NCBI GenBank assembly: GCA_947442475.1
Contig: CANEVP010000005.1
Span: 4,308 to 68,307, forward strand
Direction of reading: 5' to 3'
Length of the DNA: 64,000 nt
Source: Rickettsiales bacterium
Lineage (GTDB): Bacteria; Pseudomonadota; Alphaproteobacteria; Rickettsiales; UBA1997
Below are positions 8,321 to 60,386 of this stretch, one piece after another; the stretch's first letter is position 1, and each line of letters opens with the position of its first letter. The position numbers and the translations under genes are program-made. Under the pieces are notes generated by a model. It was not told the DNA's origin and made no database searches. It saw nothing but the letters and a program-made list of their open reading frames with translations.

Positions 8321-8674
8321 TTATATACAGTTGTAAGCGCCTTCACCAGAGATGGCGGCTACGATTGTTGGAGCGCCAAACATTGCAGCAATACCCATTG
8401 CAACACCGATCATCAAACCCCAAGAAACTTTACCTGTGAAGAAACCGATACCAACTGAGATAATTGCAAAAGCCGCGAAAGCTTTACCGCCGTTACCAGT
8501 AACAATTTTAAGTGCGTTACACATGGTGTAAACAAGAACGTTAGAGTTAACATCATTAGGAGCAGTTGCAGCAAAAGCGTCAGATGACAAAACCGGTACA
8601 ATCGCCGGGGCAACTGCTAAAAAGATAAAAGACAGAAGAGCTGCTTTCACCAAAAAAGAAGAAAGTTTTTTCAT
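8321..8674 (-). CDS. virB2: TrbC/VirB2-like type IV secretion pilin candidate
   Basis: 117 aa. Long signal-like leader ending SDAFA|A, then two hydrophobic, Gly/Ala-rich segments separated by a short polar loop (FFTGKVSWG). This size and architecture are typical of VirB2 pilins. virB4 and virB6 are present elsewhere in the window. Confidence 0.5.
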   Translation of the reverse strand: MKKLSSFLVKAALLSFIFLAVAPAIVPVLSSDAFAATAPNDVNSNVLVYTMCNALKIVTGNGGKAFAAFAIISVGIGFFTGKVSWGLMIGVAMGIAAMFGAPTIVAAISGEGAYNCI

Positions 8675-27056: not shown

Positions 27057-27584
27057 ATGAAAAAACTTTTTACCTCTTTCGTCCTTGCAGCGCTTTGCTC
27101 TTTGCCAGTAAATGCTCAAGAAGCTCCTGCCAGTTCAACTGCAACTCAACCTGCAACAATTGCGTCTGGAAAAAATCAGCCTCCTGTAAAGAAAAATCTT
27201 TCGACCGAAGAAAGAATTAAAATGAAAGACACCAATGCTGCAAAATTGCAAAGCGCCTCTCCAGAAGAAAAACAAAAAATGATGGAGCACCGCGAAAAAG
27301 CAGAAAACATGAGCCCAGAAGAACGTGAAAAAATGAAAGCCCAAAAAATGGAAAAGAAAGAACTTAGAGAAGAGAAAAAAGAAGCCAGACAAGAAAAATA
27401 CAACAACGCTTCACCGGAAATGAAAGCCAAAATGGATGAGAACCGCGCCGTAATGGAAAAACTTTCTCCTGAAAAAAGAGAAGCAGCAAAAGCTGAAATG
27501 AAACGCCACCGCGAAGCAATGAAAGCAATCACTGGCGTTGAATTGCCAATGCCTCCACAACCAAATACTAACCAACAACACTAA
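27057..27584 (+). CDS. Secreted K/E-rich repeat protein (Spy/CpxP/ZraP-like composition)
   Basis: 175 aa. Signal peptide (…LPVNA|QE), then four iterations of an (A/M/L)SPE(E/M/K)-K/R-x-K/A-M-K helical motif and a Pro/Gln tail. Family assignment not secure. Confidence 0.5.
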   Translation: MKKLFTSFVLAALCSLPVNAQEAPASSTATQPATIASGKNQPPVKKNLSTEERIKMKDTNAAKLQSASPEEKQKMMEHREKAENMSPEEREKMKAQKMEKKELREEKKEARQEKYNNASPEMKAKMDENRAVMEKLSPEKREAAKAEMKRHREAMKAITGVELPMPPQPNTNQQH

Positions 27585-30051: not shown

Positions 30052-30918
30052 TTAAGAAATCGTAAGATTATATTTCTGACCCAAATAAGTCTCCACCACC
30101 TGACGTTCCGTTGTTTGCAGCGCGCGGCTAAAGATGATTATTTCAGCAATGTCGCCATTTAAATAATGAGTTAAATATCTGCCAATCGCAGCTCCCGAAT
30201 AAGATGTTAAAGCTGAGTTAAACCCAACTCCAGCATCGTCCGCAGTGCCTCCACCATTGATCCAATATTTTTGACCAGCAGCCACATTAAACCAGAAGGT
30301 GTGAATTCTTGGCGTCGGGCTGGAATAAGCAGCGAGGGTAAAATCATTAAAAACACCGCTGGAATGAGCTTGAGTAATTGTGGTGTCTGAGCGGTAGCCT
30401 AAATGTAAATTGCCATTTGCAGCAGCGCTGTCGCCTCCCAAAAACATCATTTGACTGGTACTTGCTCTTCTTTGCTCGACCACAAAAATTGTGTAGGAAG
30501 AGCCAATTAGGGATGAGCCGTCAAAAGTTAAAAAATCATTAACTCCGTCAAATCTAATGGCCGGAAGCGATTCATTGAAAACTTTTTCGTAAAATTTTGG
30601 CTTACTGCTTGCGCTGGTTTGCGTCGCATTATTTTTAGATGCGGCATTTGAGCTATTGTCTTGCCAGACGCTGATTGAGCCGCCGTCAACTTGTTCTGAG
30701 AAAAGGAAGGAGCTTTCCAACGCGGTTTCGTACCAAATCGCCAAGTCGGCAATATCTTTCACTGAAGAATTTTGGGTAATGGTTTGAGCCGTTGAAAGTC
30801 GAGCCTTTAGAAACATCGCCTGCGACTTTATCACCCCAGCCACAATGGCAGCAATGATTGCCAAAACGACCGAGATTTCGACCAAGGAAAAGGCCGTGCG
30901 CAGAGATTTTTTTGGCAT
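30052..30918 (-). CDS. Modular type IV pilin-like protein: prepilin-type N-terminus plus LamG/concanavalin-like lectin module
   Basis: 288 aa. The N-terminus MPKKSLRTA|FSLVEISVVLAIIAAIVAGV fits the class III signal / N-methylation consensus except for Ala instead of Gly at -1. The C-terminal ~190 aa have the LamG_3 pattern (IRFDGVNDFLTF…YTIFVV…GDIAEIIIFSRALQTTERQVVETYLGQKY). Confidence 0.7.
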   Translation of the reverse strand: MPKKSLRTAFSLVEISVVLAIIAAIVAGVIKSQAMFLKARLSTAQTITQNSSVKDIADLAIWYETALESSFLFSEQVDGGSISVWQDNSSNAASKNNATQTSASSKPKFYEKVFNESLPAIRFDGVNDFLTFDGSSLIGSSYTIFVVEQRRASTSQMMFLGGDSAAANGNLHLGYRSDTTITQAHSSGVFNDFTLAAYSSPTPRIHTFWFNVAAGQKYWINGGGTADDAGVGFNSALTSYSGAAIGRYLTHYLNGDIAEIIIFSRALQTTERQVVETYLGQKYNLTIS

Positions 30919-30919
30919 T

Positions 30920-31684
30920 TTATTTAGCTAAAAAATTAATCGGACCCGTAGCGTGACCGTGAATAAATTGGTCGAGATAGGCGTTTCCTGAGGAGTACAT
31001 GTCTTTGACATCGCCAAACCAAATGATTCTACCTTCATAAAGCATGGCGATTTTATCAGCGATTTTGCGCGCTGAATTCATGTCGTGAGTAATGGTGATT
31101 GTGGTGGCACCCAGATGTTTCGAGTTCGAAATGATTAAGTCATTAATCACGTCCGCCATGATTGGATCGAGACCAGTTGTTGGCTCGTCGAAGAAAATAA
31201 TTTCAGGATTACTCGCAACGGCGCGCGCTAAAGAGGCGCGTTTTTGCATGCCGCCGGAAAGTTCTGACGGATAAAGATCGGCAACTTTTTCGCTCAAACC
31301 GACATCTTTTAATTTTGAAATGGCGATTTCGCGTGCTTCTTTTTTGTTGATTTTTTTGTGATTGAGCAAGCGGAACGCAACATTTTCCCAGATCGGTAAT
31401 GAATCAAATAAAGCGCCGCCCTGAAATAAAAATCCGAATTTCTCCATTAACTTGTCACGCTCTTTGTCGTTAAGACGCGAAACTTCAACATCGTCAATTT
31501 TAATGCTGCCAGAAGTTGCCTCTATTAGACTGGCAATGGTTTTAATTAGAACCGATTTGCCAGAACCCGAGCCGCCTAAAATGACAACTGACTCACCTTT
31601 ATTAACCACAAAATCAACGCCTTTGAGAACCTGCTTTTCGCCGAAATTTTTAGTGAGATTTGAAACGGTTAATTTTGTGGTCAT
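30920..31684 (-). CDS. mlaF: ABC transporter ATP-binding protein, MlaF-like
   Basis: 254 aa. Walker A GGSGSGKS, signature LSGGMQKR, Walker B IIFFDEPTTGLD, and the MlaF-like C-terminal tail YLDQFIHGHATGP. Its stop is 1 nt from the pilin ATG. Confidence 0.75.
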   Translation of the reverse strand: MTTKLTVSNLTKNFGEKQVLKGVDFVVNKGESVVILGGSGSGKSVLIKTIASLIEATSGSIKIDDVEVSRLNDKERDKLMEKFGFLFQGGALFDSLPIWENVAFRLLNHKKINKKEAREIAISKLKDVGLSEKVADLYPSELSGGMQKRASLARAVASNPEIIFFDEPTTGLDPIMADVINDLIISNSKHLGATTITITHDMNSARKIADKIAMLYEGRIIWFGDVKDMYSSGNAYLDQFIHGHATGPINFLAK

Positions 31685-31696
31685 TTTAATTTTTAT

Positions 31697-32476
31697 TTAT
31701 TTCTTCTCTGCCAATTTTTTTTCGATCAATTTCTTAAGTGTCACGTAATCAACATATCCTTCAGAAATTTCGCCATTTACGAAGAAAGTCGGCGCTGATT
31801 TAATTTGCAGAACTTTTGCTACTTCCATTCTTGCGGTAAGGATTTTTTCTTGCAGAGCTTTGTCAGCAAGACAGCTTTTGAATTTTGCTGAACTCATGCC
31901 GTCAAGGCTGGCAATTGCTTCTAATTTATCAGCAAATTTTTCGTCAAAAGCCCAAGCATCTTGGGTTTTAAAAAGAGCTTTTACCGTAGCGTAATATTTG
32001 CTGGTGGCTTCGGCTTTATTTTCATTAGCTTGGCAGTAAGCAAACATCGCACCAACCAAAGCAGATTGATTTAATGGAAAGTTACGGAAAGCGAATTGCA
32101 CTTTGCCAGTGTCGATAAATTCAGTTTTTAATTTTTCGAAAGATTCGCGAGTGAAAGCCGCACAGTGCGGGCAAGAAAGTGAAGCATATTCAACCATCAC
32201 AACCGGCGCAGATCTTTCGCCCAAAACATAATCAGAAGCAGAGATTTTTAAGATCTCGCTATTTTTGCGAGTTTCTTCCAAAGCAGCGGCATCAGCATTA
32301 ACTGCGGCGTTAACGGAATCTTGCTCATGTTGCTTGGGCGCTTCTACTGCAGCAGCTTGATCGTTATATTTTTCAGAAGTTTTGTTCTTATAATTGTGGG
32401 TCACCAGAGCGGCAAGGCCAACAAGAACAAGGACAGAAACAGCAATAGCGGTGCGCTTTTTAGATTGTTTTTGCAT
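31697..32476 (-). CDS. dsbA: DsbA-family thiol:disulfide oxidoreductase (Com1-like), membrane anchored or secreted
   Basis: 259 aa. N-terminal hydrophobic anchor and the thioredoxin-fold active site EYASLSCPHCAAF. Confidence 0.8.
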   Translation of the reverse strand: MQKQSKKRTAIAVSVLVLVGLAALVTHNYKNKTSEKYNDQAAAVEAPKQHEQDSVNAAVNADAAALEETRKNSEILKISASDYVLGERSAPVVMVEYASLSCPHCAAFTRESFEKLKTEFIDTGKVQFAFRNFPLNQSALVGAMFAYCQANENKAEATSKYYATVKALFKTQDAWAFDEKFADKLEAIASLDGMSSAKFKSCLADKALQEKILTARMEVAKVLQIKSAPTFFVNGEISEGYVDYVTLKKLIEKKLAEKK

Positions 32477-32565
32477 ATGAATTTTGATTTTGAAGTTGAC
32501 TGACAGAGGGACGAAATTGATGATTTGTTAAAGAAACTTTTTCTTGAAAAAAAATCAATCAATTT

Positions 32566-33345
32566 ATGCAAACTCCGATCTCAGTTTTCATCATTACTAA
32601 AAATGAAGAAGATCGAATTTTAGATGTGATTAATGCTGTAAAAACAATCGCCGATGAAATTTTGGTAATTGATTCTGGCAGCAGTGATAAAACCTGCGAA
32701 ATCGCCACTCGCGCTGGAGCAAAAGTGATGTTTAATGCTTGGCAAGGTTTTGGTTGGCAAAAAATTTTCGGTGAAAATCAATGTCGCAATAAATGGATTT
32801 TAAACATCGATGCCGATGAAGAAGTTTCACCAGAATTATGCGCCGAAATTAAAACAATTTTTACTAAAAACTCTCAGGAAGATTTTTACGGATTTCGCAT
32901 CAAAATTGTGAATCGCTTTCGCTTCGAAAAGCATCCCCACAAATATGCTTATTTTTACAATCAACTGCGTCTTTACAATAAAGATTACGCTGGCTTTAAA
33001 AATAGCACAGTACACGATTCCGTTGAGTTGCGTGACGGCGCCCTCGACAAAGTTGGTCAGTTAAAAAATATTATTTTTCACCAATCTTTCCGCTCATTTT
33101 CGCATTGGATCGAGAAAATAAATTTCTACTCGCAGATGCAAGCGCAAGATTCTTTTAGCAAGGGTAAATGCCCTTCAATTGCCAAAGTTTTGTTTGTTTC
33201 ATCCGTGGCATTTTTTAAAGCATACTTTGTGCGTCGCTATTGCATTTATGGTTTTAATGGTCTGACTTACAGCTACCTATTTGCCTTCTCGCGCTTTGCG
33301 AAAGCAATCAAAACGCGCGAGCTTTTCCAAGAAAAAAATCAGTAA
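32566..33345 (+). CDS. Family 2 glycosyltransferase
   Basis: 259 aa with ISVFIITKNEEDRI…, VIDSGSSDKT and NIDADE (DxD) motifs, plus a C-terminal TM region. Resembles LPS-core GT2 enzymes. Confidence 0.75.
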   Translation: MQTPISVFIITKNEEDRILDVINAVKTIADEILVIDSGSSDKTCEIATRAGAKVMFNAWQGFGWQKIFGENQCRNKWILNIDADEEVSPELCAEIKTIFTKNSQEDFYGFRIKIVNRFRFEKHPHKYAYFYNQLRLYNKDYAGFKNSTVHDSVELRDGALDKVGQLKNIIFHQSFRSFSHWIEKINFYSQMQAQDSFSKGKCPSIAKVLFVSSVAFFKAYFVRRYCIYGFNGLTYSYLFAFSRFAKAIKTRELFQEKNQ

Positions 33346-33347
33346 AT

Positions 33348-33908
33348 ATGCAGAAAATATTTTTAATTTTGCTCGCCGCTTTTTTGGTTTCTTGCGGTCC
33401 GTCAAAAGAAAGTCCGGTGATTTATTTTAGTAATGGCAGCCTTGCGCCAGTTAGAGATATTCAATGCAACTGGGCGGGAAATAATGCTCTAACTTTGCCA
33501 TTGTTAAACCCCGGTGACAGCCAAAGTCAGTCTTTTTACATGCACAGCATGTCTGATTTTTTTGGCACAGTGACGATTAATTGGCGTAATGATCGTGGTG
33601 AAAGAATTCAGCGCGAATTTGTTTTTCGCCGCAACCACTTGCCTAGCATTGAGGACACTACAACTTACAACTACGTACAATTTTATTTAGATCAGGAAGA
33701 GTTGGAACTAGTTAGCAGCGATGCTCCCGACCTAAGCGGCAAAACTCGCAAAATGGAAAGAATGTTGGCACAAATGAAGCAGGCTTACCTCAATATTCAT
33801 AGTCCCGATTCAATTCCAACCAGTGAAACTTCACTTATTCGAGTGCAACATATTGACCCGCAAAAAGATAGGTCGGTGCCTTACTGGGAGAATAGCAACT
33901 CACTGTAA
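33348..33908 (+). CDS. Hypothetical lipoprotein
   Basis: 186 aa with the lipobox FLVSC|G after a short hydrophobic leader. Coupled to the GT2 gene by a 2-nt gap. No recognisable domain. Confidence 0.5.
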   Translation: MQKIFLILLAAFLVSCGPSKESPVIYFSNGSLAPVRDIQCNWAGNNALTLPLLNPGDSQSQSFYMHSMSDFFGTVTINWRNDRGERIQREFVFRRNHLPSIEDTTTYNYVQFYLDQEELELVSSDAPDLSGKTRKMERMLAQMKQAYLNIHSPDSIPTSETSLIRVQHIDPQKDRSVPYWENSNSL

Positions 33909-33912
33909 TTTC

Positions 33913-34074
33913 TTAATTCTGCAAACTACTTCTAACATTGGATTCAATTATCTTAGTAACCTTCTTTTCATCAATATAAGCCGAGGCAATCGCGGCTATG
34001 ATTGCTGTTACAACAAGCACAGCAATCATAAATCCACTAAAACTAAAGGCTGATTTTGGTGTTTTGAAACTCAT
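33913..34074 (-). CDS. Unannotated 53-aa mini-pilin-like ORF (below the ORF-track cutoff)
   Basis: My own translation of the minus strand gives MSFKTPKSAFSFSGFMIAVLVVTAIIAAIASAYIDEKKVTKIIESNVRSSLQN*. It shares the K-S-A-F-S leader junction and the following hydrophobic helix with the two larger pilin-like genes, but has Gly instead of Glu at +5. Confidence 0.35.
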   Translation of the reverse strand: MSFKTPKSAFSFSGFMIAVLVVTAIIAAIASAYIDEKKVTKIIESNVRSSLQN

Positions 34075-34167
34075 AACAAAAATTTTACGCTAAAGGATTA
34101 TCTAAGATAAAGTTGTGGCGAAGCTTAATGAGTGATTAAACTACTAATTTTCTAAGAAATAATCTGT

Positions 34168-34201
34168 AAGGAGAGGTGAGTTTTTAAGCTTACCTCTCCT
34201 T
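34168..34201. terminator. Hairpin downstream of the giant pilin gene
   Basis: Stem aaggagaggt(gag)/(ctt)acctctcctt, 10-13 bp, 30 nt after the stop at 34232, with T-rich flanks on both strands. Confidence 0.4.
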
Positions 34202-34231
34202 TTAATTTATTGGCCATGGCGAGATAATTCG

Positions 34232-36496
34232 CTACTGGTTACACTTATAGACTAGATAATTCCCTGATGAGTTAACTTGCCGACCACAGTTAGCAGTAGT
34301 GCAATAAGATGTTAGCCACGCGGTTATATCCCAAGCATTTAAAGTTGATCCAGAAAGTGAATATACCGGACTCTGCACCAAAGCATAATGTCCACTATGT
34401 CCGCTACAGTTTATTGTTGAAAGGTGGAGCTGAGGACTTCCGACCCATCCGCTTCCACCTCTTCCTACTGAAGAAACAAGTGTCCAAGTAGTATTAGATG
34501 GGGCATATACCGAGCAAGATCCACTGGTGCTAGCAGCACCAGTTGCTGTACAAGTATAGTTTTTGGTTCCGGTGTAGCCTGTAGCATCACAAGCAAAGGT
34601 ACCACTGCCACCAGCAGCGTAAGCCAATCCGGTTTTAGCGGTCCAGCCGGTTCCAGCTGCTGCAGTGCAAGTGATTGCAGAACAAGTGCCGCCAGTAATG
34701 GTTGCAGCACCTGACGCCGTACAAGTGTAGTTTTTAGTTCCAGTGTAACCAGTGGCATTGCAAGAAAAAGTACCACTACCACCAGTAGCATAAGCCAATC
34801 CGGTTTTAGCGGTCCAGCCGGTTCCAGCTGCTGCAGTGCAAGTGATTGCAGAACAAGTGCCGCCAGTAATGGTTGCAGCACCTGACGCCGTACAAGTGTA
34901 GTTTTTAGTTCCAGTGTAACCAGTGGCGTCACAAGCAAAACTGCCGCTGCCACCAGCAGCGTAAGCAAGTCCAGATTTAGCATTCCAACCAGTTCCAGAC
35001 GCTGCGGTGCAAGTTATCGGACTACAAGTTCCACCAGTTATAGTTGCAGCACCTAAAGCATCGCAAGTGTAGTTTTTAGTTCCAGTATAACCAGCGGCAT
35101 TGCAAGAAAAAGTACCACTGCCACCAGTAGCATAAGCAAGTCCAGATTGAGCTTCATAGCCAGTTCCAGATGCTGCGGTGCAAGTTATCGGACTACAAGT
35201 TCCACCAGTTATAGTTGCGTCAGCGCCATCTGTGATACAAGTGTAGTTTTTAGTTCCGGTGTAGCCTGCAGCGTCACAAGTAAAAGTACCACTGCCATCA
35301 GCAGCGTAAGCAAGGCCAGATTTAGCGCCGTAACCAGTTCCGGCCGTTGCAGTACAAAAAACCTGAGTACATGTTCCAGCAATTGATGCCGCACCCGGCG
35401 TAATGCAAGTGTAAGTTGGAGAACCTACATATCCGGCTTGGCAAGGAGAGTTAATAGCCGTAGCGCTTGTTTTGTAAGCAAGCCCGGTTTTATTATTGAA
35501 ACCAGACACACCAGTAATTGAGCAAGTTGTTGCCACGCATGATGATCCCGACAAATAATATCCAGAATTACAATCGCAAGATCCGCTATTATAGGTATAC
35601 ACTTTACTTCCCGAACAACTGTAGTTTATTGAATCGGAACTGTCGAAATTAGAAGCGTTGCAAGCAAGATTTTGGTTAATGCCTTGATTCACTTTTGCAC
35701 CGCTATTAATTCCAATGGTAGTTGGAACATCGCATTGCACCACGCAATCTCCACCAACTCTAGTGTAACCAGTAGTACATCCAACCAAGTTTTGATCTTG
35801 AAGCGTAGTCAAATTAGCATCAGCTAAGAAATATTTTTTGTTTTTGAAAAAAACCAAATCGTCAAAAGTAGTGCCACTGCGATTGGTACCCGAAATTAAA
35901 TTAGCATCAGATCCTGATGGCATATTTTCAAGTTCATCAACATCAGTTGGAGCATTGATTTCCGTAGTTGCAAGAGACGAAACCGCACCTCTTTGATTTT
36001 TGCCACGACTAATAACTGCAAAAATTGCATTAGATTCTTCCACACCCAAAGATGATGAATATCTACTAACAACAATGTCGCCTTCCTGATCTACAAACTT
36101 GCTGGGAGTTGTCGCAACAGTGAAAGTTGAATCAATCACGTAAACCAATTTATTGCCGTAATCATCTTCGGCAAAAGCAGCAGCAAGATTTAAATCTTTA
36201 ACCGGCAACATACCATAAACCACAGTATCAGCAGCGCAGGAAATTTCACTGCCGTAAGTAGCGTCATTTTTAGGAATAGCAATTGAGGCAGGACAAGGAA
36301 GTCTCTTGTGAGCGCCGGAGTAAACTTTTAAAGCTTTATAAATTTGCCCAATGCGATCGTTGGTGACTTTAATTTTATTGGTAGAATTGCTACTGGTTTG
36401 AACCGATAAAATTCCAACTAGCACGGCGGAAGCAACAAGCACAACTACGGAAAGTTCAGTTAAGCTGAACGCCGATCTCAATTTTTTAAATTTCAT
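34232..36496 (-). CDS. Giant modular type IV pilin-like protein with Cys-rich tandem repeats
   Basis: Start placed at the internal ATG (36496): MKFKKLRSA|FSLTELSVVVLVASAVLVG, a prepilin-type N-terminus with Ala at -1. A region of about 230 aa follows, then an EGF-like Cys-rich region (CDCNSGYYLSGSSC), six 56-57-aa four-Cys repeats and a 95-aa C-terminal domain. Confidence 0.7.
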   Translation of the reverse strand: MKFKKLRSAFSLTELSVVVLVASAVLVGILSVQTSSNSTNKIKVTNDRIGQIYKALKVYSGAHKRLPCPASIAIPKNDATYGSEISCAADTVVYGMLPVKDLNLAAAFAEDDYGNKLVYVIDSTFTVATTPSKFVDQEGDIVVSRYSSSLGVEESNAIFAVISRGKNQRGAVSSLATTEINAPTDVDELENMPSGSDANLISGTNRSGTTFDDLVFFKNKKYFLADANLTTLQDQNLVGCTTGYTRVGGDCVVQCDVPTTIGINSGAKVNQGINQNLACNASNFDSSDSINYSCSGSKVYTYNSGSCDCNSGYYLSGSSCVATTCSITGVSGFNNKTGLAYKTSATAINSPCQAGYVGSPTYTCITPGAASIAGTCTQVFCTATAGTGYGAKSGLAYAADGSGTFTCDAAGYTGTKNYTCITDGADATITGGTCSPITCTAASGTGYEAQSGLAYATGGSGTFSCNAAGYTGTKNYTCDALGAATITGGTCSPITCTAASGTGWNAKSGLAYAAGGSGSFACDATGYTGTKNYTCTASGAATITGGTCSAITCTAAAGTGWTAKTGLAYATGGSGTFSCNATGYTGTKNYTCTASGAATITGGTCSAITCTAAAGTGWTAKTGLAYAAGGSGTFACDATGYTGTKNYTCTATGAASTSGSCSVYAPSNTTWTLVSSVGRGGSGWVGSPQLHLSTINCSGHSGHYALVQSPVYSLSGSTLNAWDITAWLTSYCTTANCGRQVNSSGNYLVYKCNQ
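34520..35545 (-). repeat. Six tandem 171-bp (57-codon) coding repeats inside the giant pilin gene
   Basis: Protein repeat unit: C-TAA(S/A)GTG(Y/W)xAK(S/T)GLAYAxGGSG(T/S)F(S/A)C(D/N)A(A/T)GYTGTKNYTCxxxGAATITGGTCSxIT. At DNA level the string aagccaatccggttttagcggtccagcc… recurs at 34621 and 34792 (171-bp period) with long identical runs. Confidence 0.9.
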
Positions 36497-36595
36497 CTCA
36501 GTTTTATGTAGCTTTAGGAATGAGGTCAAAGAGTGATGATTCATCAAAAGATAGCTACCGCATCATTGCAATAGTATTTTGTCGATTTTTTTAGA

Positions 36596-39901: not shown

Positions 39902-42900
39902 TTACTTAGAATCGCCGCCTTCGTCACCGCCTCCATCGCCTCCACCAGCTTCATCACCGTCAGCACTACTTTTAGATTGATCTCCGCCAGCATCGCCATC
40001 GCCACCACCTTTGCTGCCACCTTTATTTCCAGCCTTACCTATTGCCTCTCGAGTTTTGGCAGCTTTTTCCAATCCTTTGTTACCTAATTTTTTACTGGCA
40101 CCAGCGGCACGTTTTTGTATTGACGCCAAAACACCCTTGACTTTGCTCATCATTTCAAGTGGATCGGCATTTCCACCATCCAACTTTGATCCACCGACTA
40201 ATAGTGCAGCCATTCCTGAAATTTCGTTCATGAATTTATAAAGCAAGAACATCACCATCGCACCCTTCAAAATGGTGAGAACCTTGATCTGCCCATTTTC
40301 GCCAAAAATATTCATTAAAATTGGAATGCTCAAACCAATCATTTCAAGACCCGGCATCGTACCAAAATCATCCAGATTTATTAGACAGGCAACACTATCA
40401 CTCATTGGATCCAATATTTTATCTCCGGTATCATCGCAGTCAGGGAGTTTACCATTAACATATGGATCAATTGAGCCGTCCAAGTTTTTACAAATTTTAG
40501 AGCAAGAAATTGTTTTAGATGGAGCCTGTCCAGAGAAGGTGGCGCTACCAATCATGGTTTTATCCATGATTGTTACAAATAATGCGATATAGGCAAAAAG
40601 TATCATAGGCTGCAAGCAGTATCCTATTAACTCTGTCACCCATTTTTTGAAAATATCAGACGTCTTACTAAACATCGCTGTGGGTATAATCACTGGCGAG
40701 ACGAAGACTAAAATAATAATACCTGCCGCCGAAGCCAAAAAAATATGCAAAGCGCGTAAGGTAGCTGCTAAAAAGAAGAAACCGAAGAACATTACGGCAA
40801 TGGCAAAATAAATTCCTACCCCCGTGGAACTAACTCCCGCAATGTTGAAGCTGAAATATCCAGCAAAAATTAATGACGCAATATTGGCAACACTGACCTC
40901 TGGACCATAGCCCAAATAGCGCATCATTTTACAATCAAGCGTATCCCACAAAGCCAAATATTCTTTGCCAGAAGGATAGGTGCGACCAGAAGAAACTTGC
41001 GAACCATCCGGCAATGAAATCATCCCAAATTGACAGCCATCCCTTTGAGACTCAGATTGCTGAGAGCTAATTTTAAAGACCATCTGCGAAAACTCTGTCG
41101 AGGCGCCGTAAACTCCCTTGAAGAAGAAACCTTGCCACGCATCGCCCGTAGCAAAAAAAAGCACCAAGGTAATTTTGAGCAGATACATTAGGATGTCTTT
41201 TTTCTCTCCGATATTCGCCTTACCCAGCAAGATGTTCATGCCGTAGAACATAATCGATAAAGTCAGAACCATCTTCACCGAATCCTTCATAGTGTTTTGC
41301 ACTATTGAGAAAAATGAAGTCTCTTTCACCGTATTGCCTTTTTGATAAATGAAGTTGCCGTTTACTTTGTAATTACCACTTGGACAAGATCCATCTGGAG
41401 ACGGATATTCATTTGCGTTAGCGCATTTACTGTGACCCGCAACGTTGTAGAAAAGATTTTCTAAAGTTTCTTTCACGCATTGCGCAATTGGCGCCGAAAA
41501 GTGCTTCTGACTATTTAGAATAAAGCTGCCGCCGTAGGCGGTTTGGTTTTGAGAGTCACCGACAAAATTCAAGCAAGCATCTGAGAAATAAGGCGATCCT
41601 AAATTGGTTTCATATTGATAATCTGCTAAACTGGTGACAGTGCAGTGAGTTAAATATTGGCAATAATTTTTACATTTGCCCGCCTTTGCATTGTAGGAAC
41701 AATCACTATTTCTGATTTCACTTTTTGAAGAGCAATTGCCTGCCTTAACGTCATCTTGAGTGATCATGGTCCATCTTCCATTGGAGTATTTTCCATCTTG
41801 GTAATAATCACAATATTCCGAACCCCCACCAACAGCAAAGTTATAAGGGCATAAGCTGTAGGTTTGGGCGCAAATTAAACTACCATTGTCGAGTGATTTG
41901 GTTGAGAAGGTGATGCCTTCCACATTGCATAATTGACCAACTTTACAAAAAGTTTTAACGCCTGTTACCGGATTACTCGCCACATCACCGCCGCCAGAAA
42001 GGCCCGATGCTCCATTTAAGCCACTAGTAACGCCCCCGGTAACCACGCCAACGCTGCTCGAAAGCGCTGTATAATTTAAACAAATAAATTCGGCGCTGCG
42101 TTTTTTACAGCAGGCATAGGCATTTTGTAATTCAACAATTCTTGCGGCAGTGACGGGAGCATTAGTTAAGGGGTCCATATTGCCCGGAACTAAATTATAT
42201 TTCTTACAGTTATAATTACCTGCCGCAGTGCCTCTCATGTAATATTTCTGCTTCGGATATTTGCCATTCACCCTCTGCGTCACGTCGTAACAGCTTTGGT
42301 AACCTCCATCGGGATTATCCTCTACCTCTTCACCGCCGTAATACCATTCGCGATAAGTTTTATCTCCTGAGGCTTCGAGAGTTAATTTTGAGGTTTGTCC
42401 GTCGCGAATATAGCCCTCAACCGCATCTTTTACTTTCTGCTTTTTATTCGGAGCACTGATATCATATGTTAAAGGATTTGCCGTCACCCATTGCGCACCA
42501 CAAACTTCAGTATGATTATAAGTGTTAAGGGCAATTCCGTAAATTATGGCAAGCTGGGCAATCGCGATACCCCAGCTCGCAGTGGCCACAGCAACAGCTG
42601 CACCACATGAATAATTTTGCTGGAGGAGAGCTCTTTTCACTCCCTCAATGGCTCCTCTAGTCAGATCGTAAGCGTCTAGAAGTGGAACTGGAAGTATTCT
42701 AGGAATTATGCTTCCAGTTGAGCATATGCCATTCATCGCGGCAATCGAGGTTTTTACTGCCACATATGTTGTCAATATTACGGTGAAGCATACTGGATTT
42801 GACAAAACAAATTCCGCGTCCTTACCGGCATTTGTCATGTCAAAATTTAAGGTATCTGGAACGCCACTAGAGCTGCAACTGCGGGTTCTACCAACGCCAT

Positions 42901-43021
42901 AATCAGTTGCGCTTTCCGCGTAAGAACCTTGTAGAGAAGTAACAAAAAAACAGCAAAAAACACCGACAGCAAGCAGCAAACGCGAAGCTCTTCTAAAAAA
43001 TGTTTGCTGAAAAATTATCAC
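39902..43021 (-). CDS. virB6: Giant VirB6/TrbL-like type IV secretion inner-membrane protein
   Basis: 1039 aa, immediately downstream of virB4 (21-nt gap). Signal/TM at the N-terminus, a Cys-rich soluble region of about 330 aa, then a block of at least 6 predicted TM helices (residues ~570-900) as in VirB6/TrbL, and a Gly/Asp/Lys-rich acidic tail (…GGGDGDAGGD…GGGDGGGDEGGDSK). Large VirB6 paralogs after virB4 are typical of Rickettsiales rvh systems. Confidence 0.6.
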   Translation of the reverse strand: MIIFQQTFFRRASRLLLAVGVFCCFFVTSLQGSYAESATDYGVGRTRSCSSSGVPDTLNFDMTNAGKDAEFVLSNPVCFTVILTTYVAVKTSIAAMNGICSTGSIIPRILPVPLLDAYDLTRGAIEGVKRALLQQNYSCGAAVAVATASWGIAIAQLAIIYGIALNTYNHTEVCGAQWVTANPLTYDISAPNKKQKVKDAVEGYIRDGQTSKLTLEASGDKTYREWYYGGEEVEDNPDGGYQSCYDVTQRVNGKYPKQKYYMRGTAAGNYNCKKYNLVPGNMDPLTNAPVTAARIVELQNAYACCKKRSAEFICLNYTALSSSVGVVTGGVTSGLNGASGLSGGGDVASNPVTGVKTFCKVGQLCNVEGITFSTKSLDNGSLICAQTYSLCPYNFAVGGGSEYCDYYQDGKYSNGRWTMITQDDVKAGNCSSKSEIRNSDCSYNAKAGKCKNYCQYLTHCTVTSLADYQYETNLGSPYFSDACLNFVGDSQNQTAYGGSFILNSQKHFSAPIAQCVKETLENLFYNVAGHSKCANANEYPSPDGSCPSGNYKVNGNFIYQKGNTVKETSFFSIVQNTMKDSVKMVLTLSIMFYGMNILLGKANIGEKKDILMYLLKITLVLFFATGDAWQGFFFKGVYGASTEFSQMVFKISSQQSESQRDGCQFGMISLPDGSQVSSGRTYPSGKEYLALWDTLDCKMMRYLGYGPEVSVANIASLIFAGYFSFNIAGVSSTGVGIYFAIAVMFFGFFFLAATLRALHIFLASAAGIIILVFVSPVIIPTAMFSKTSDIFKKWVTELIGYCLQPMILFAYIALFVTIMDKTMIGSATFSGQAPSKTISCSKICKNLDGSIDPYVNGKLPDCDDTGDKILDPMSDSVACLINLDDFGTMPGLEMIGLSIPILMNIFGENGQIKVLTILKGAMVMFLLYKFMNEISGMAALLVGGSKLDGGNADPLEMMSKVKGVLASIQKRAAGASKKLGNKGLEKAAKTREAIGKAGNKGGSKGGGDGDAGGDQSKSSADGDEAGGGDGGGDEGGDSK

Positions 43022-43042: not shown

Positions 43043-45430
43043 TTATTTAGGACGGCTGCGTTCGTAATAAATTGGCAACCAATCGTCAGGATCTTCGCCA
43101 ACCTCGTCAATGATTTCATCCATTAGAATCACGGTGTCAATACGAGCAGAAAGAACACGAATTACGTCATCCATTCCACCCAAATCAATGCGCGCAATTA
43201 CGCCGTCATTATCTTGTTTTACGAGGAAGAAACGCGTTGAAGGATCTGTCGTTTTTACCAAGTTAAATTCGCGCTCACTCAACATGAAAACTTCGCGATA
43301 AAGTATCGTAGCTTTCAAGTTTGGCAGAAAAATCTGCGTTGAGGTTTGTTGCACCAAAGTGTCGGAAATACTACTTTTGGCCGCGTCTTCCACCGATTGC
43401 GTCGCAAATACTACAAAGGTGTTAAGTTTTCTTAAAACTTTGAGCCAGTCTTTAATTTTTGGCGCAAAAACTGGGTTTCCAATCAAGGCCCAAGCTTCAT
43501 CGAGAACGATCATGGTTGGCGAACCATCAAGCGAACTTTGAATACGATGAAATAAATAAAGCAGCACCGGACCAATAGAGGCCTTATCTTGCAAGATGTG
43601 CGACATTTCAATTCCGAAAGAGCGCGCCGACGTGAAATCGATCATGTCATCTTCATTATCAAACAACTTGGCGTGCGAACCTGTTGTATGCCACATGGCT
43701 AATCTACCAGCTAAAGTTCCTGGACCGCCCAAGCCCATGAAAGGCGCGATATTTCGGATTCTTCTTTGTTCTTTCGGCAGTTTGTAATTTCCTTTTACCG
43801 CTTCGTTAATGCGCTCAATTTCGTGAGCTGGCAAAGCCACGTCGCCAACCATTACCAGTGCCTTCATGAAGTCGATTAAGAATGAGCGATTTTCAGCAGT
43901 ATCTTCGAGTTGAAATGGATTAAAGCCGGAAGTTTTTGCCGCATCCGGAATCATGTAACGGCCACGAATCGCGCGAATAAAAATTTCTGCACCACGATCT
44001 TTATCAAAGAAAAATAAACGGCCGTTAAATTTTTGCGCCTGCGCGCAAAGGAAGTTTAGCAATACCGTTTTACCCGCACCAGTCGGCCCGATAATCATAC
44101 TGTGACCAACGTCACGCACGTGAAAACTGAAAAAATAAGGCGTGCCCGAAACGGTGTTAAGCACCGTCACCGCGTCACCCCAGTGATTTTTCTTTCTTTT
44201 GCCTGACGGATAATTGTGAAAAGAGGCAAAAGCCGCGATATTTAAAGTGTTCACCGTACTGCGGCGCGCCATAAACTCAGCATTGCCGGGTAGTTGCGCC
44301 CAATAAGCTGGCTCCAAATTCATTTTCTCGCGAGCACCGGTAATACCAGTGTTTGAAAGCTCAACTACTGCAAGCGACAAAGCGCTTTCCAAAGCTTTTG
44401 GCGATTCTTCAATACATAAAACTGACATGTGATGCAAGCCAAAACCAAACTCACCACTCATCGCTGAATCTAGCGCCGAGTCAATTTCTTGGATTTGCGA
44501 AACCGCAACGTCTTCCGACTGAATCAAGCGCCGTTGTTGCAACTGCATCGAACTAATCGCCACCATGCGATTAATAAAAGAAAATGATTGGCTGATAATG
44601 AGCTCAAAAGGCATCTGCATAAAACCATCAAAAACTCCGGCGTGAGTTGATGGGCGGTATTCTTTAATTGAAACCATGCCGGCATATTTGGCGCCAGTTG
44701 GGTGATGAACTTCAACTGATTTATTGCCGAAATAAAGTCGACTAATTGGCAAGTGATGCGAGATTTGACCCAAGGGAATTGTCATTGGTTGCGAGTGACC
44801 GCAATTAACCAAGCGCGAGAAAAATTCTAGAATTTCTGAAGTAACGCCATCCTCGCTTTCATTAATGCCTAAAACGCGCGGACCGTAATTGCCGTAACCA
44901 TTTAAAATACGCTCAGTCATCTCATCAAGTTCGTCAAAAGCTTCGCGCATGTAATTTTCCCACGAAGATTTATCAGCGCGATGCTGCAATTTTTTCGCCA
45001 TATGTTCCAGCACCGCAGCACCCGAAGTGTCAGCTCCACGAATAATCGTGAAATAATGTTCATTAATAAAACTTCTGGTGCCTGAGTGCTTTTTTTCCCA
45101 TTCACTATTAACGCGCGCCGAAAATAAATCAGGCATTTCGCCATCAGGAAAACCTTTTTCTTTGCGACGAATGGTGTGAAAATAAAGCGAAAAATTGCCT
45201 GACGCCATACCTTTCAAAAGGTTGTTTCTGGCATTTTTTTTGAGATCAATATCAGCGTCATCAGCGGTCTCGAAGGCGAATCCTTTAATTTTAATAACAC
45301 GAACTAACTCTTCTTTGTGAGTTAAAATCGTGTCTGAATTCCAATGGCATTTATAAGGAATAAAATACGCCGCCGAAACCTCTCCCTTGGTGACTTTTTC
45401 TTTTGCTGGCTTAACGGTTGAAAGACGCAT
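43043..45430 (-). CDS. virB4: Type IV secretion system ATPase VirB4
   Basis: 795 aa. N-terminal CagE/TrbE/VirB4 pattern (YFIPYKCHW…, VIKIKGFAFETADD), Walker A GPTGAGKTVLLNFL, Walker B MIVLDEAW and the C-terminal FATQS motif. Confidence 0.9.
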   Translation of the reverse strand: MRLSTVKPAKEKVTKGEVSAAYFIPYKCHWNSDTILTHKEELVRVIKIKGFAFETADDADIDLKKNARNNLLKGMASGNFSLYFHTIRRKEKGFPDGEMPDLFSARVNSEWEKKHSGTRSFINEHYFTIIRGADTSGAAVLEHMAKKLQHRADKSSWENYMREAFDELDEMTERILNGYGNYGPRVLGINESEDGVTSEILEFFSRLVNCGHSQPMTIPLGQISHHLPISRLYFGNKSVEVHHPTGAKYAGMVSIKEYRPSTHAGVFDGFMQMPFELIISQSFSFINRMVAISSMQLQQRRLIQSEDVAVSQIQEIDSALDSAMSGEFGFGLHHMSVLCIEESPKALESALSLAVVELSNTGITGAREKMNLEPAYWAQLPGNAEFMARRSTVNTLNIAAFASFHNYPSGKRKKNHWGDAVTVLNTVSGTPYFFSFHVRDVGHSMIIGPTGAGKTVLLNFLCAQAQKFNGRLFFFDKDRGAEIFIRAIRGRYMIPDAAKTSGFNPFQLEDTAENRSFLIDFMKALVMVGDVALPAHEIERINEAVKGNYKLPKEQRRIRNIAPFMGLGGPGTLAGRLAMWHTTGSHAKLFDNEDDMIDFTSARSFGIEMSHILQDKASIGPVLLYLFHRIQSSLDGSPTMIVLDEAWALIGNPVFAPKIKDWLKVLRKLNTFVVFATQSVEDAAKSSISDTLVQQTSTQIFLPNLKATILYREVFMLSEREFNLVKTTDPSTRFFLVKQDNDGVIARIDLGGMDDVIRVLSARIDTVILMDEIIDEVGEDPDDWLPIYYERSRPK

Positions 45431-57272: not shown

Positions 57273-60200
57273 TTAGCGGATGAAAATTGGTTGAAGCATT
57301 TGTGATTTTGCCTGATTAGAGAAAGATTCTTGCGAATTTTGTTCTTGCGAATTTTGAGCTGCTTTTGCCTGATCTAAAAGCGATGATTTAACCACCTCTT
57401 CTTCCTTAGGCGCCGCGGGTTTAGTCAAGCCAAGATATTGCTTCACCTGATCTAAATTTGTGGTTTGCGAAAGCCCATCAAAAGAGCCATTAATGTTAGT
57501 TGCAATGTTGATTGGCGTTTGTTTTGCGCGCGTTCCAGTTAAGAAAATTACATTGAACAAACTATTCACCGTGTTTTTAGACAAGTTAACTGTGCCCGTC
57601 AAAACCCCGTTAATTGCGGTGCCAGAGATGTTGGCACTAATTTTTCCATCAGTTGCACCGTTAATTTTGATCGAACCGATTGCTTGCTTGAAAGCAGTAG
57701 AGCTTTCGGGATTTAACAAAACTTTCTCCGGCTCAAGCAAATCTTGCGCATTGGTTTTTGGCGCAAACATTTTTTTAACCAAGTCATCCAAACCGTATCC
57801 CTCAACTGTGGGCGCAACAGAGCCAAATTTTATTTCGCTAATTAGAGATTGTGCAAACTCCTCTTTCTTAGTTGCACTTGCCGTAACGTTAGCAGAAATA
57901 TTAGCAATTCCCGAAACATTGTTGATGCCCAAAATGTCAGGTAAAAATTCTTTCAAAGCCACATTTTTAAAAGTGATATTACCATTGATCACCTTGCTTA
58001 AACCAATGCCGATCAGACCTTTGTAATTAAATTTTCCGCCATACGTCTCGCTGCTAAATTCTGCATTTTTAATGCTTCCTGCTGACAATCTGCCCGCCAG
58101 TTTGAAATTTTTTAACTCGACATTGTCCAATTTTAAATTGGCAAAATTCAAACCAATCTGTCCGTTAAATCCTTCAAGTGAAGGCATGGCAAAAAACTGA
58201 TCGAAGAAATTTTGTTTCTTTGATTTTTTATCATCAATTTTATCGGGATTTTGCACCGTTTCGTAATGAAATTTTTCCGCCGCCACGTTGATCATGAAGC
58301 GCGGAGATTTGTCGCTAATATCCACCAACATGTCAGCGGTTAAGTCGGTGATTTCTGATTTTAATTTTAGATTTTCAATTTGAATGTAACCGCGGCCAAA
58401 GCTTATTTTCATAGATTGGTCAGCAAATTCTTCGCCGCCGTAAATCAACTTGTCGAAGCCCAAATCAAACTGAGCATTTGCAGAAATATCATTGAGCCAC
58501 AGTAATTTTCTAATCAACATTCCGGGTGAAAAATAGAGATTGTGATTCGAGGTTAAAAAATAGTCGTCAATGTTGAATCTATTGCTGCTAAAACGACTTT
58601 TAAGATTTGTTACTTTGTCGGTATTATCGATTGTGATCTCGCCCAAAAACTCGCTATTATCCGTATTTAAATTCAGATAAAAATTGCTGAGTTTGGCAAT
58701 GTTGGGAACCAAGAAAATGTCCGAGTAAATGTTGTATTCTTTGAGATTGTCGAATTTCAAATTTTGCGATTCGATTTTCAGCCACGTAAAAATATCTTTT
58801 AAGCTCTTGCCGCTAACATCAAATTTACCAATAAATTTCGGCGCATTGCCACTATTATCAACCACGCCACTAACTCTAAATAAGCCATCTCCAGGAATTC
58901 TAAAAGTCAGCGGCGAAATCATAACCTCACCTTCGTGAGAAATTGTGGCATAAAGACTGGCATCCTTAATTTCGCCTTCGAAATATTTTATATTATTGAT
59001 TTGTATTTCAGCGGTGAGATCGAAATCTTTGATTTTTTTGACTAAACTTAGATCAATTTTCTTCGCAGCTTCTTCAGCTTTTTTTTCTTCTTCGGTTTTA
59101 ATGATTGTTGATTTTGTCTGTTCGCCACTTTCAGGAAGAGGCGGCAAAGTTTCAACCGTATCATCCAAAGATTCTGCCGCACTTGGTTTCTCGCCAATGT
59201 CAGCCGCAGCAACAGCCACTGAGTCTGGCGACAAAATATTATCCAGATCAAGATTTTCCAAAGCCAAGCTCACATCAATATTTGGCATTTCGTCAGTAAA
59301 ACTTAGATCAATTTCACCTTTGCCATTAACCAAACTGGAATTGATTAACAAATTTGCCACAGCAATTTCTTTTGCCTTACTTGCAACATCCGCACTGATT
59401 TTAATTGGCGTGCCGTTTAATTTAAATTTTTCCGAAAGCACACTTTCGCCACCAATGTAGCTTTTGTAAAAAGTTTTGAATTCAGCAATTTCCACTTCCA
59501 GCTTGCCGTTAAAATCGCTGGCAAAAACTCCTAAATTGTCTGAGGTAAAATTTCCTTTCACGCTAATTTGCAGAGCCTGAGAACTCAACTCCAAGAAGGA
59601 GTCTGGCTTTTTATTTTGTGAATTAAATTTGGCGTTAATTTTAAAATTACTGAGAATTTTTTCTGAGATAAAATTTCCCTCCGCAAACATTTTTTTTGCA
59701 CCAACTTGCATCTCGGCATTGATTGTCTTCACTTCTTTTTTCTTATCAAAAGCATCGTAAGAAATCAGTGCACTATTTTTTATTACAATACGCGGAGTGT
59801 TTCTGGGATTAACTTGCGAACTCTCCACATCAGCAACCGAAAATAATTTTGCGCTAATTTGCGAGCTATTTTTTTTGGTCTCAGTTGCGGCATTTTTTAA
59901 CAACTCTCCAGACAGCGTTGTAAAAGCATCGTCACGCACCAGGAACTGCCCTCTATCTTGATAAGATTGCAGCACCGCTTTGGTAAAAATTATTTTTCTA
60001 ATTGCCGAATCTTTTGCAAATTTAAAAACAGTTAATTTGATTTGAGCCTTTCTAGCGTAAAGATTGTAGACTTTTTCAGGAGCATTTTCTTCCGATTTAA
60101 TCCGGTAATTTTGCAGCAAAACATCATGCATCGTGATGGTTGGAGTGGGCAAAAAAGAAACTTTTACATCACCTAAAATAGCAAAATTAGCGCCAGAAAT

Positions 60201-60386
60201 TTGGCTAACTTTTTGCGAAATTTGAAATTTTAACGCTGCGTTATTGAAGAGAAATGGTACCAAACCCAAAAGCAAAAATAACCCAAAAAACACCGCAGCG
60301 CCGATACGCATAGCCTCTGACTTGAAGATGCGATTTTTGATTTTTTCAATAAATTGCGCTGTGGGAGTTTTTTCAGTTTCGCTCAT
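57273..60386 (-). CDS. AsmA-family large envelope protein
   Basis: 1037 aa. A single N-terminal TM (AAVFFGLFLLLGLVPFLF), then long beta-rich, low-Cys sequence typical of AsmA/TamB-like proteins. Family call is by architecture only. Confidence 0.45.
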   Translation of the reverse strand: MSETEKTPTAQFIEKIKNRIFKSEAMRIGAAVFFGLFLLLGLVPFLFNNAALKFQISQKVSQISGANFAILGDVKVSFLPTPTITMHDVLLQNYRIKSEENAPEKVYNLYARKAQIKLTVFKFAKDSAIRKIIFTKAVLQSYQDRGQFLVRDDAFTTLSGELLKNAATETKKNSSQISAKLFSVADVESSQVNPRNTPRIVIKNSALISYDAFDKKKEVKTINAEMQVGAKKMFAEGNFISEKILSNFKINAKFNSQNKKPDSFLELSSQALQISVKGNFTSDNLGVFASDFNGKLEVEIAEFKTFYKSYIGGESVLSEKFKLNGTPIKISADVASKAKEIAVANLLINSSLVNGKGEIDLSFTDEMPNIDVSLALENLDLDNILSPDSVAVAAADIGEKPSAAESLDDTVETLPPLPESGEQTKSTIIKTEEEKKAEEAAKKIDLSLVKKIKDFDLTAEIQINNIKYFEGEIKDASLYATISHEGEVMISPLTFRIPGDGLFRVSGVVDNSGNAPKFIGKFDVSGKSLKDIFTWLKIESQNLKFDNLKEYNIYSDIFLVPNIAKLSNFYLNLNTDNSEFLGEITIDNTDKVTNLKSRFSSNRFNIDDYFLTSNHNLYFSPGMLIRKLLWLNDISANAQFDLGFDKLIYGGEEFADQSMKISFGRGYIQIENLKLKSEITDLTADMLVDISDKSPRFMINVAAEKFHYETVQNPDKIDDKKSKKQNFFDQFFAMPSLEGFNGQIGLNFANLKLDNVELKNFKLAGRLSAGSIKNAEFSSETYGGKFNYKGLIGIGLSKVINGNITFKNVALKEFLPDILGINNVSGIANISANVTASATKKEEFAQSLISEIKFGSVAPTVEGYGLDDLVKKMFAPKTNAQDLLEPEKVLLNPESSTAFKQAIGSIKINGATDGKISANISGTAINGVLTGTVNLSKNTVNSLFNVIFLTGTRAKQTPINIATNINGSFDGLSQTTNLDQVKQYLGLTKPAAPKEEEVVKSSLLDQAKAAQNSQEQNSQESFSNQAKSQMLQPIFIR

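Follow-up and report, generated by a model that had tools for sequence, protein, structure and literature searches.

Three minus-strand genes in a 64-kb stretch of an uncultured freshwater Rickettsiales genome (contig CANEVP010000005.1 of GCA_947442475.1, positions 4,308 to 68,307; hereafter "the window", with coordinates counted from its first base) encode proteins that are probably modular type IV pilin-like adhesins. These genes, which we call P1 (30052..30918, 288 amino acids (aa)), P2 (34232..36496, 754 aa), and P3 (33913..34074, 53 aa), would depend on a PilD peptidase that accepts Ala before the cleavage site and on assembly by dispersed MSHA-like PilB, PilC, and secretin components. 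The six-frame translation of the whole window contains three matches to the pattern [KR][ST]AFS[LF], compared with a mean of 0.17 and a maximum of two in 200 second-order Markov shuffles, so the three near-identical N-termini pointed out in a first-pass annotation of this DNA are real. In each of P1, P2, and P3, the match follows the start codon by 6–9 residues and is itself followed by a hydrophobic stretch of ~20 residues. The N-termini read MPKKSLRTA/FSLVEISVVLAIIAAIVAG for P1 (a leader of nine residues with predicted cleavage between A9 and F10), MKFKKLRSA/FSLTELSVVVLVASAVLVG for P2, and MSFKTPKSA/FSFSGFMIAVLVVTAIIAAIA for P3, where the slash marks the predicted cleavage site, and thus all end in one of the two residues, "Gly or Ala", by which the class III leader is defined (PMC8179133; PMC3244431). 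Phe at +1 combined with Glu at +5 is found in P1 (FSLVE) and P2 (FSLTE), in line with the initial view that two of the three proteins fit the class III consensus; P3 has Gly at +5 (FSFSG), though its orthologues read FSIVE. The alpha-1 helix of type IV pilins, with ~21 hydrophobic residues in a helix of ~50, also has a counterpart in the AlphaFold2 (AF2) models of P1 (residues 12–49) and P2 (residues 12–63).

For P1, the assignment to class III (prepilin-type) signal peptides is upheld by a score of 16.6 bits against the NCBIfam prepilin-type cleavage/methylation model TIGR02532 (IPR012902; cut-off 16.3) and by the alignment of 49 diverse relatives, in which Glu+5 (E14) is invariant. Ala-1, Phe+1 (F10), and Ser+2 are each conserved in at least 90% of these sequences at a mean column identity of 49%, a pattern that a simple membrane anchor would not be expected to show. 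The homologues of P1 form at least 226 clusters, some of them with PF13385 (Laminin_G_3) or PF07963, and many relatives already bear the name [quoted passage not shown]. The cut-off of the Pfam N_methyl model is passed by relatives with Gly at -1 and by some with Ala. When the profile of the P1 family (A1) was compared with the PDB sequences, its sole matches were the type IV pilins geopilin, PilA, and MshA (E 0.05–0.24).

The AF2 model of P1 (predicted local distance difference test (pLDDT) 93.6) consists of the alpha-1 helix, a beta-sandwich of the concanavalin A (ConA)/LamG type, and a C-terminal helix (residues 269–283). Foldseek matches to this model in the PDB include the trans-sialidase lectin domain, CBM40, the botulinum and tetanus neurotoxin Hc domains (BoNT Hc), and PilC, a modular minor pilin of Streptococcus sanguinis (7oa7/7oa8, E ~4e-6). 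As modelled, P1 thus joins the alpha-1 helix of a pilin to a lectin sandwich of the ConA/LamG type, which gives it the combination of a pilin motif with an extra non-pilin domain that characterizes modular pilins; relatives carry PF13385. Pilins of this modular design, with a ConA-like lectin module, are widespread (PMC8179133), and S. sanguinis PilC (PMC8179133, PMC9934059) resembles P1 in its class III leader, alpha-1 helix, and ConA-like lectin module as well as in its proposed function, glycan-binding adhesion via a type IV filament. The two proteins are only ~11–13% identical in sequence, and P1 differs from PilC in belonging to a diderm alphaproteobacterium, in having Ala rather than Gly at -1, in forming multi-copy tandem families away from pil operons, and in a helix that runs straight into the sandwich with no evident separate small pilin module or linker. 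The ConA-like lectin fold of P1 makes the adhesin role suggested in the first-pass annotation plausible.

P2 is a giant pilin-like protein whose best start is the ATG at 36496, where its homologues also begin (MKFRSL or MKLRKAF), the longest mechanical open reading frame (ORF) starting at a TTG at 36547. It comprises the leader, a conserved N-terminal domain of ~235 aa, Cys-rich modules, and a unique C-terminal domain of ~110 aa. We detected 40 relatives with A/F or G/F N-termini, of which 13 share the ~235-aa domain (motifs RLPCPA and FDD.V.FK), again behind A/F or G/F. In the AF2 model of this domain (pLDDT 75.7), the long helix is packed on a beta-sheet, and type IV pilins head the list of Foldseek matches, none of which is significant (best E 0.13; PulG is 18th with E 9.5). 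The Cys-rich modules are encoded by a tandem array (34533..35327, minus strand), in which Tandem Repeats Finder counts 4.6 repeats of 171 bp that are 84% identical; each unit specifies a 57-aa module with four Cys. P2 itself has no Pfam match even at E<=10; a Sushi domain (PF00084) is Pfam-significant in its homologue P0159 (E 1e-11), and the 57-aa units of P2 align with it in register. Like P1, P2 thus adds non-pilin modules to a pilin-like N-terminus, in this case Cys-rich repeats, and relatives carry PF21722 or PF00084. Since some relatives end in a glycine-rich PF21722 region and others join the repeats to a P1-type LamG N-terminal domain, the modules are shuffled among pilin-like carriers. 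A Kelch assignment of the repeats, based on the sole PDB sequence match (the designed propeller 7onh, E 1e-9), was dismissed as a compositional or repeat artefact.

Among known systems, CofB of enterotoxigenic Escherichia coli (ETEC) and GspK of the type II secretion system (T2SS) likewise combine a pilin N-terminus with bulky domains, and a position at the tip of the filament is assumed for them. The closest, non-significant fold match of the P2 N-terminal domain is an ETEC type IVb pilin. P2 differs from CofB and GspK in lacking any sequence relationship to them, in its Sushi-like four-Cys repeats, and in the glycine-rich (PF21722) ends of its relatives. ENA and Logan short-read contigs end inside the 171-bp repeats. 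Close relatives differ in the length of the protein (754, 896, and 680 aa), and such differences suggest variation in repeat copy number typical of surface adhesins. In a close relative, the JGI 3300059473 contig encoding the P2 homologue P0122, a Transposase_mut (PF00872) gene is inserted upstream of the homologue, between it and queA; it is absent from this position in the window.

The smallest of the three, the genus-restricted P3, begins 157 bp downstream of P2 and comprises a leader, a hydrophobic helix, and a polar tail of ~20 residues. Gene predictions on ENA and Logan contigs include it. The intervening region contains a hairpin whose stem is a perfect 15 bp (34168..34201) between the P2 stop and the P3 start, which is probably an intrinsic and likely bidirectional terminator and would separate the two transcripts. 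In two sister genomes (loci L003 and L004), orthologues of 63 aa read MQNHKISKAA/FSIVEF... and have kept Glu+5. An exhaustive search of 1.84 billion representatives returned only P3 itself and one 59-aa relative, and we therefore rejected membership of P3 in a wider family. A Flp/Tad pilin was also rejected because P3 reads A/FSFSGF and not G/xxxxEY; no Tad system has been reported for the family Candidatus (Ca.) Gamibacteraceae. P3 may thus be a genus-specific mini-pilin or a decaying fragment. That P3 alone is such a fragment, or a chance ORF stemming from the 5' end of a pilin gene, and no functional gene, is possible though on balance unlikely. The divergence of P3, which is 54% identical to its sister-genome orthologue where flanking genes are 92–98% identical, would fit decay, as would the loss of Glu+5 in the window copy, the restriction of the family to two clusters, and the lack of any Pfam or NCBIfam match. 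Decay is harder to reconcile with the intact ORF of 53–63 aa that L003 and the P0122 contig (53 aa in the latter), two assemblies besides those of the window lineage, have 3' of their P2 homologue, with the same P3-like ORF in L004, whose contig ends before P2, with the retained leader and helix, and with the position of P3 behind its own terminator-delimited intergenic region.

Ala at -1 is the dominant form in the family, occurring in 110 of the 113 P1-family matches and in 26 of the 32 P2 matches; across 79 genomic loci, 100 N-termini have Ala-1 and 22 have Gly-1. Both residues alternate within tandem arrays at five loci (L047, L049, L050, L057, and L063), for example in the order A,G,G,G (L047), A,G,A,G (L049), and A,A,G,A,G (L063), and a neighbour-joining tree of 108 paralogues requires at least 10 changes between Ala and Gly. 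This alternation and the repeated interchange point to one processing system with a peptidase that accepts both residues, and they contradict the "lineage-wide switch" to Ala that had been proposed. Likewise, "non-canonical" was too strong a word for Ala-1, considering the published leader definition cited above; it is unusual here in frequency, not in kind. Other Ala-1 prepilins and the archaeal FlaFind-type sites share with P1–P3 a small residue before the cut, the F/x/x/x/E arrangement, and the hydrophobic helix, the difference being that here Ala is the rule across an expanded family, with Gly kept in some paralogue groups. The five arrays come from other Rickettsiales MAGs (metagenome-assembled genomes) and contain 3–5 LamG pilin-like paralogues directly after enolase and D-aminotransferase genes, ~10 kb into the locus. 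Paralogues of the same group, such as the last gene of each array, keep the same -1 residue across arrays. The array size recalls minor-pilin tip complexes.

Relatives of P1 are found almost only in freshwater and groundwater MAGs labelled Rickettsiales or Alphaproteobacteria. Three MAGs (GCA_017999675.1, GCA_903837365.1, and GCA_903959715.1) have been classed as Ca. Gamibacteraceae by Castelli et al. (2024) and RIFCSPLOWO2_01_FULL_40_26 by Schön et al. (2022; PMC9352585), and the window lineage is probably also Ca. Gamibacteraceae. Many of the lake MAGs with this Rickettsiales-type synteny (L010, L020, L036, and others) have been deposited under wrong organism names ("Rickettsia typhi", "Rhizobium sp.", and "Lentimonas sp."). 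Type IV pilus and T2SS genes are widespread in basal Rickettsiales (PMC10847448), and all four Gamibacteraceae MAGs tabulated by Schön et al. have pilB, pilC, pilD (1–2 copies, with two paralogues in 2/4 MAGs), and an mshL-like secretin gene (PMC9352585 Suppl. Data 4). The same tables record only 0–4 pilins and no pilT for these MAGs (PMC9352585). RIFCSPLOWO2_01_FULL_40_26, listed there as "BfRick" with one pilB, one pilC, two pilD, and one mshL-like secretin gene, is the MAG that contains L013 and L032, with the syntenic locus and Ala-1 pilins.

At locus L080, only 20 bp separate a family member from the gene upstream of it, which encodes a PilB-type ATPase (T2SSE, E 2e-122, plus MshEN). The same PilB is encoded by a solitary gene between gltX and apaG in GCA_017999675.1, a MAG that also holds a syntenic P1 orthologue (L006), and solitary PilB-type ATPases occur in other assemblies as well. 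An MSHA-type pilus is indicated by the MshEN domain of the ATPase and by the secretin orthogroup, 90% of which is mshL in KEGG. The lineage resembles the Vibrio-type MSHA system in these two components (MshE, with MshEN and T2SSE domains, and MshL), and the A1 profile weakly matches the N-termini of MshA and PilA. It differs from MSHA in that it has no msh operon and its genes are scattered singly among housekeeping genes, and the pilin-like proteins, which bear lectin or repeat modules, exceed MshA 2–5-fold in size. One further PilB (P0185, 87% identical to that of GCA_017999675.1) was considered as the window population's own and set aside, as it is found in ERZ27277814 and other assemblies and not in ERZ27280195, the only ENA assembly with the window sequence, and no link between the two emerged.

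The statement in the first-pass annotation that no pilus machinery lies nearby is accurate for the window, but it holds only locally, given the PilB in a confamilial MAG and the pilB, pilC, pilD, and secretin genes tabulated for the L013/L032 MAG. With PilB in relatives and the tabulated machinery, a complete lack of peptidase and ATPase, which the same annotation regarded as fatal to its proposal, is therefore contradicted at the family level. The window itself represents an ordinary Rickettsiales chromosome with housekeeping genes and genes of the rvh (Rickettsiales vir homologue) type IV secretion system (VirB6/TrbL, VirB4, and TrbC).

We consider it improbable that the proteins never enter a filament and that the pilin-like N-terminus, cleaved or not, acts as an inner-membrane anchor that holds lectin or repeat domains in the periplasm or on the envelope, with Ala-1 lowering or abolishing processing. 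This would agree with the genomic setting of most family members, which have no machinery nearby and lie beside enolase and aminotransferase or dsbA and ABC transporter genes, with the probable co-transcription of P1 with an MlaF-like ATPase gene, and with the marginal scores of the methylation-motif models. In Pseudomonas aeruginosa, Ala at -1 is reportedly processed only in part (Strom & Lory). An anchor would explain neither the invariant Glu+5 and near-invariant Phe+1, which are hallmarks of filament assembly, nor the alternation of Gly-1 and Ala-1 paralogues in the same arrays, and it leaves confamilial MAGs with pilB, pilC, pilD, and secretin genes yet few other recognized pilins; moreover, one family member abuts pilB (L080).

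The proteins might instead be pseudopilins of a T2SS-like endopilus, with PilB, PilC, PilD, and the secretin forming a secretion piston and no external adhesive pilus, which we regard as quite improbable. The published orthogroups leave some room for this, as the secretin is annotated partly as T2SS_gspD and PilB/PilC/PilD partly as GspE/GspF/GspO (PMC9352585 Suppl. Data 4); JGI names some relatives PulG or ComGC, and the absence of a recorded PilT in Gamibacteraceae (PMC9352585) would also be compatible with it. However, at 288 and 754 aa and with their lectin or repeat modules, P1 and P2 greatly exceed GspG-K in bulk, and the MshEN domain and the mshL-like secretin favour an MSHA-type pilus. 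No matches to the GspG-K families were obtained, and no gsp genes are present in the Pfam-annotated window or in four annotated relative loci. Scans of the loci for assembly ATPases and A24 peptidases gave only PilB-type and VirB4 ATPases and no peptidase, other T2SS or tad components (e.g. GspC, L, and M) being outside the scope of these scans of window and loci.

Several observations weigh against the pilus adhesin interpretation. No prepilin peptidase, secretin, or PilB/PilC pair was identified for the genome from which the window derives; neither the window nor the 1.18 Mb of related loci contains a peptidase, PilC, or secretin. Specifically, an A24 peptidase was detected neither in the window nor in the 81 related loci that make up the 1.18 Mb (G.GD.K motifs; phmmer with a P. 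aeruginosa PilD query), the T2SSE Walker-A motif was confined to the VirB4-annotated ORF in the window and the loci other than L080, and there are no pil, gsp, or tad genes in the part of the window (~2–62 kb) for which identical contigs carry Pfam annotation. P1 passes the TIGR02532 cut-off only just and remains below that of Pfam N_methyl (15.6 vs. 21.2 bits), and pilin hidden Markov models (HMMs) do not match P2 or P3, to which the non-significant fold matches of P2 and the divergence and missing Glu+5 of P3 can be added. The P1 model also appears to lack the separate small pilin module that S. sanguinis PilC has between alpha-1 and the lectin domain, as the helix leads almost directly into the sandwich and no separate alpha/beta pilin head is evident. 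Finally, we infer the cleavage, methylation, filament incorporation, and ligand binding of P1–P3 throughout.

If the proteins are modular pilin adhesins, the pre-proteins would be inserted into the inner membrane via the hydrophobic alpha-1N segment, and a PilD-family peptidase encoded elsewhere in the genome would cut the 8–9-residue leader after Ala-1, accept Ala and Gly alike, and probably N-methylate Phe+1. The mature proteins would then be loaded by a PilB (MshE-like)/PilC motor into a type IV filament that exits through the MshL-like secretin. On such a filament, P1 would display a ConA/LamG lectin head able to bind glycans, P2 would present a long stalk of disulfide-rich Sushi-like modules, placed at the tip because of its bulk, and P3 would be little more than an alpha-1 helix. 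Together, they could serve for attachment to the surface of a host or a particle. The dispersal of the pilin genes among housekeeping genes parallels that of the machinery genes of the lineage.

The genes next to P1 offer no sign of a dedicated accessory function. Upstream of P1 lie genes for an MlaF-like ABC ATPase (30920–31684, minus strand) and a DsbA-like thioredoxin (31697–32476, minus strand; both assigned by Pfam/NCBIfam). The P1 start codon is located 1 nt past the stop of the ABC ATPase gene, and P1 is therefore probably co-transcribed with dsbA and the ATPase gene. The order lipoprotein, GT2 glycosyltransferase, DsbA, ABC ATPase, pilin, followed in some cases by aminotransferase and enolase, is kept in ~17 loci, across which the ABC ATPase is 77–87% identical, the other neighbours down to 44–49%, and the pilin 42–65%. 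In locus L072, the dsbA, ABC ATPase, GT2, and lipoprotein genes are followed by mdh with no pilin gene, and in other MAGs pilin arrays follow the enolase and aminotransferase genes without these four genes. Judged by their sequences, DsbA and GT2 are generic proteins, and the four neighbours represent conserved housekeeping synteny. The proposal that they supply disulfides, glycosylation, or anchoring to the pilin was thus abandoned, as they are far better conserved than the pilin and occur without it in L072, the arrays occur without them, and P1 contains no cysteines.

Elsewhere in the window, the type IV secretion genes encode a VirB6/TrbL-like protein of 1039 aa (39902–43021, minus strand), a VirB4 of 795 aa (43043–45430, minus strand), and a small TrbC/VirB2-like protein (~8321–8653, minus strand). 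The VirB4–VirB6 pair also precedes the pilin locus in L009, L035, and the P0122 contig. A gene of the DUF1016 family (YhcG-like, PF17761; 25935–26921, plus strand) is found ~3 kb from P1, and in GCA_017999675.1 (L084, 1178–2176) a DUF1016 gene adjoins LamG pilin-like genes ~8 kb from pilB; this recurrence may be coincidental synteny. The window also encodes a Lys/Glu-rich secreted protein of 175 aa with a faint DUF3106 match (27057–27584, plus strand) and an AsmA-family protein of 1037 aa (57273–60386, minus strand).

The first-pass annotation regarded the locus as a candidate for something undescribed, a view that does not hold, since relatives are automatically annotated as prepilin-type and modular lectin pilins are a described class. 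Lectin-module pilins, Ala or Gly at -1, and type IV pili in basal Rickettsiales are already known, and our current understanding of type IV filaments is left unchanged by P1–P3. The novelty is modest and lies in the Ala-dominant expanded lectin-pilin family in Gamibacteraceae, the pilins with Sushi-like repeats, and a possible alpha-1-only mini-pilin. The Ala-dominant cleavage sites also provide a natural data set on the specificity of prepilin peptidases.

Gamibacteraceae are an uncultured sister group of the ectosymbiont Deianiraea. According to one proposal, the first host-associated Rickettsiales attached by means of type IV pili, and the published gene tables for the family list the machinery and very few pilins (PMC9352585). 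Proteins of the P1–P3 kind may be the "missing" pilins of this system, which standard pilin HMMs miss or barely catch because of Ala-1 and the atypical heads. Each genome has several copies of the LamG-type and Sushi-repeat pilin-like proteins, which are concrete candidates for the subunits that mediate adhesion, with glycans as their candidate ligands. More speculatively, and in our estimation rather unlikely as a whole, the pilin repertoire of Gamibacteraceae-type Rickettsiales may consist mostly of this expanded, fast-diversifying Ala-1 family with lectin heads or Sushi repeats, processed by an Ala-adapted peptidase, and P3 might then be a core subunit that consists of alpha-1 alone, comparable to PilA-N of Geobacter. 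If true, this would explain why surveys find pilB, pilC, pilD, and secretin genes but almost no pilins in Gamibacteraceae, and the proteins described here would constitute the host-attachment organelle that has been postulated for the ectosymbiont from which host-associated Rickettsiales descend.

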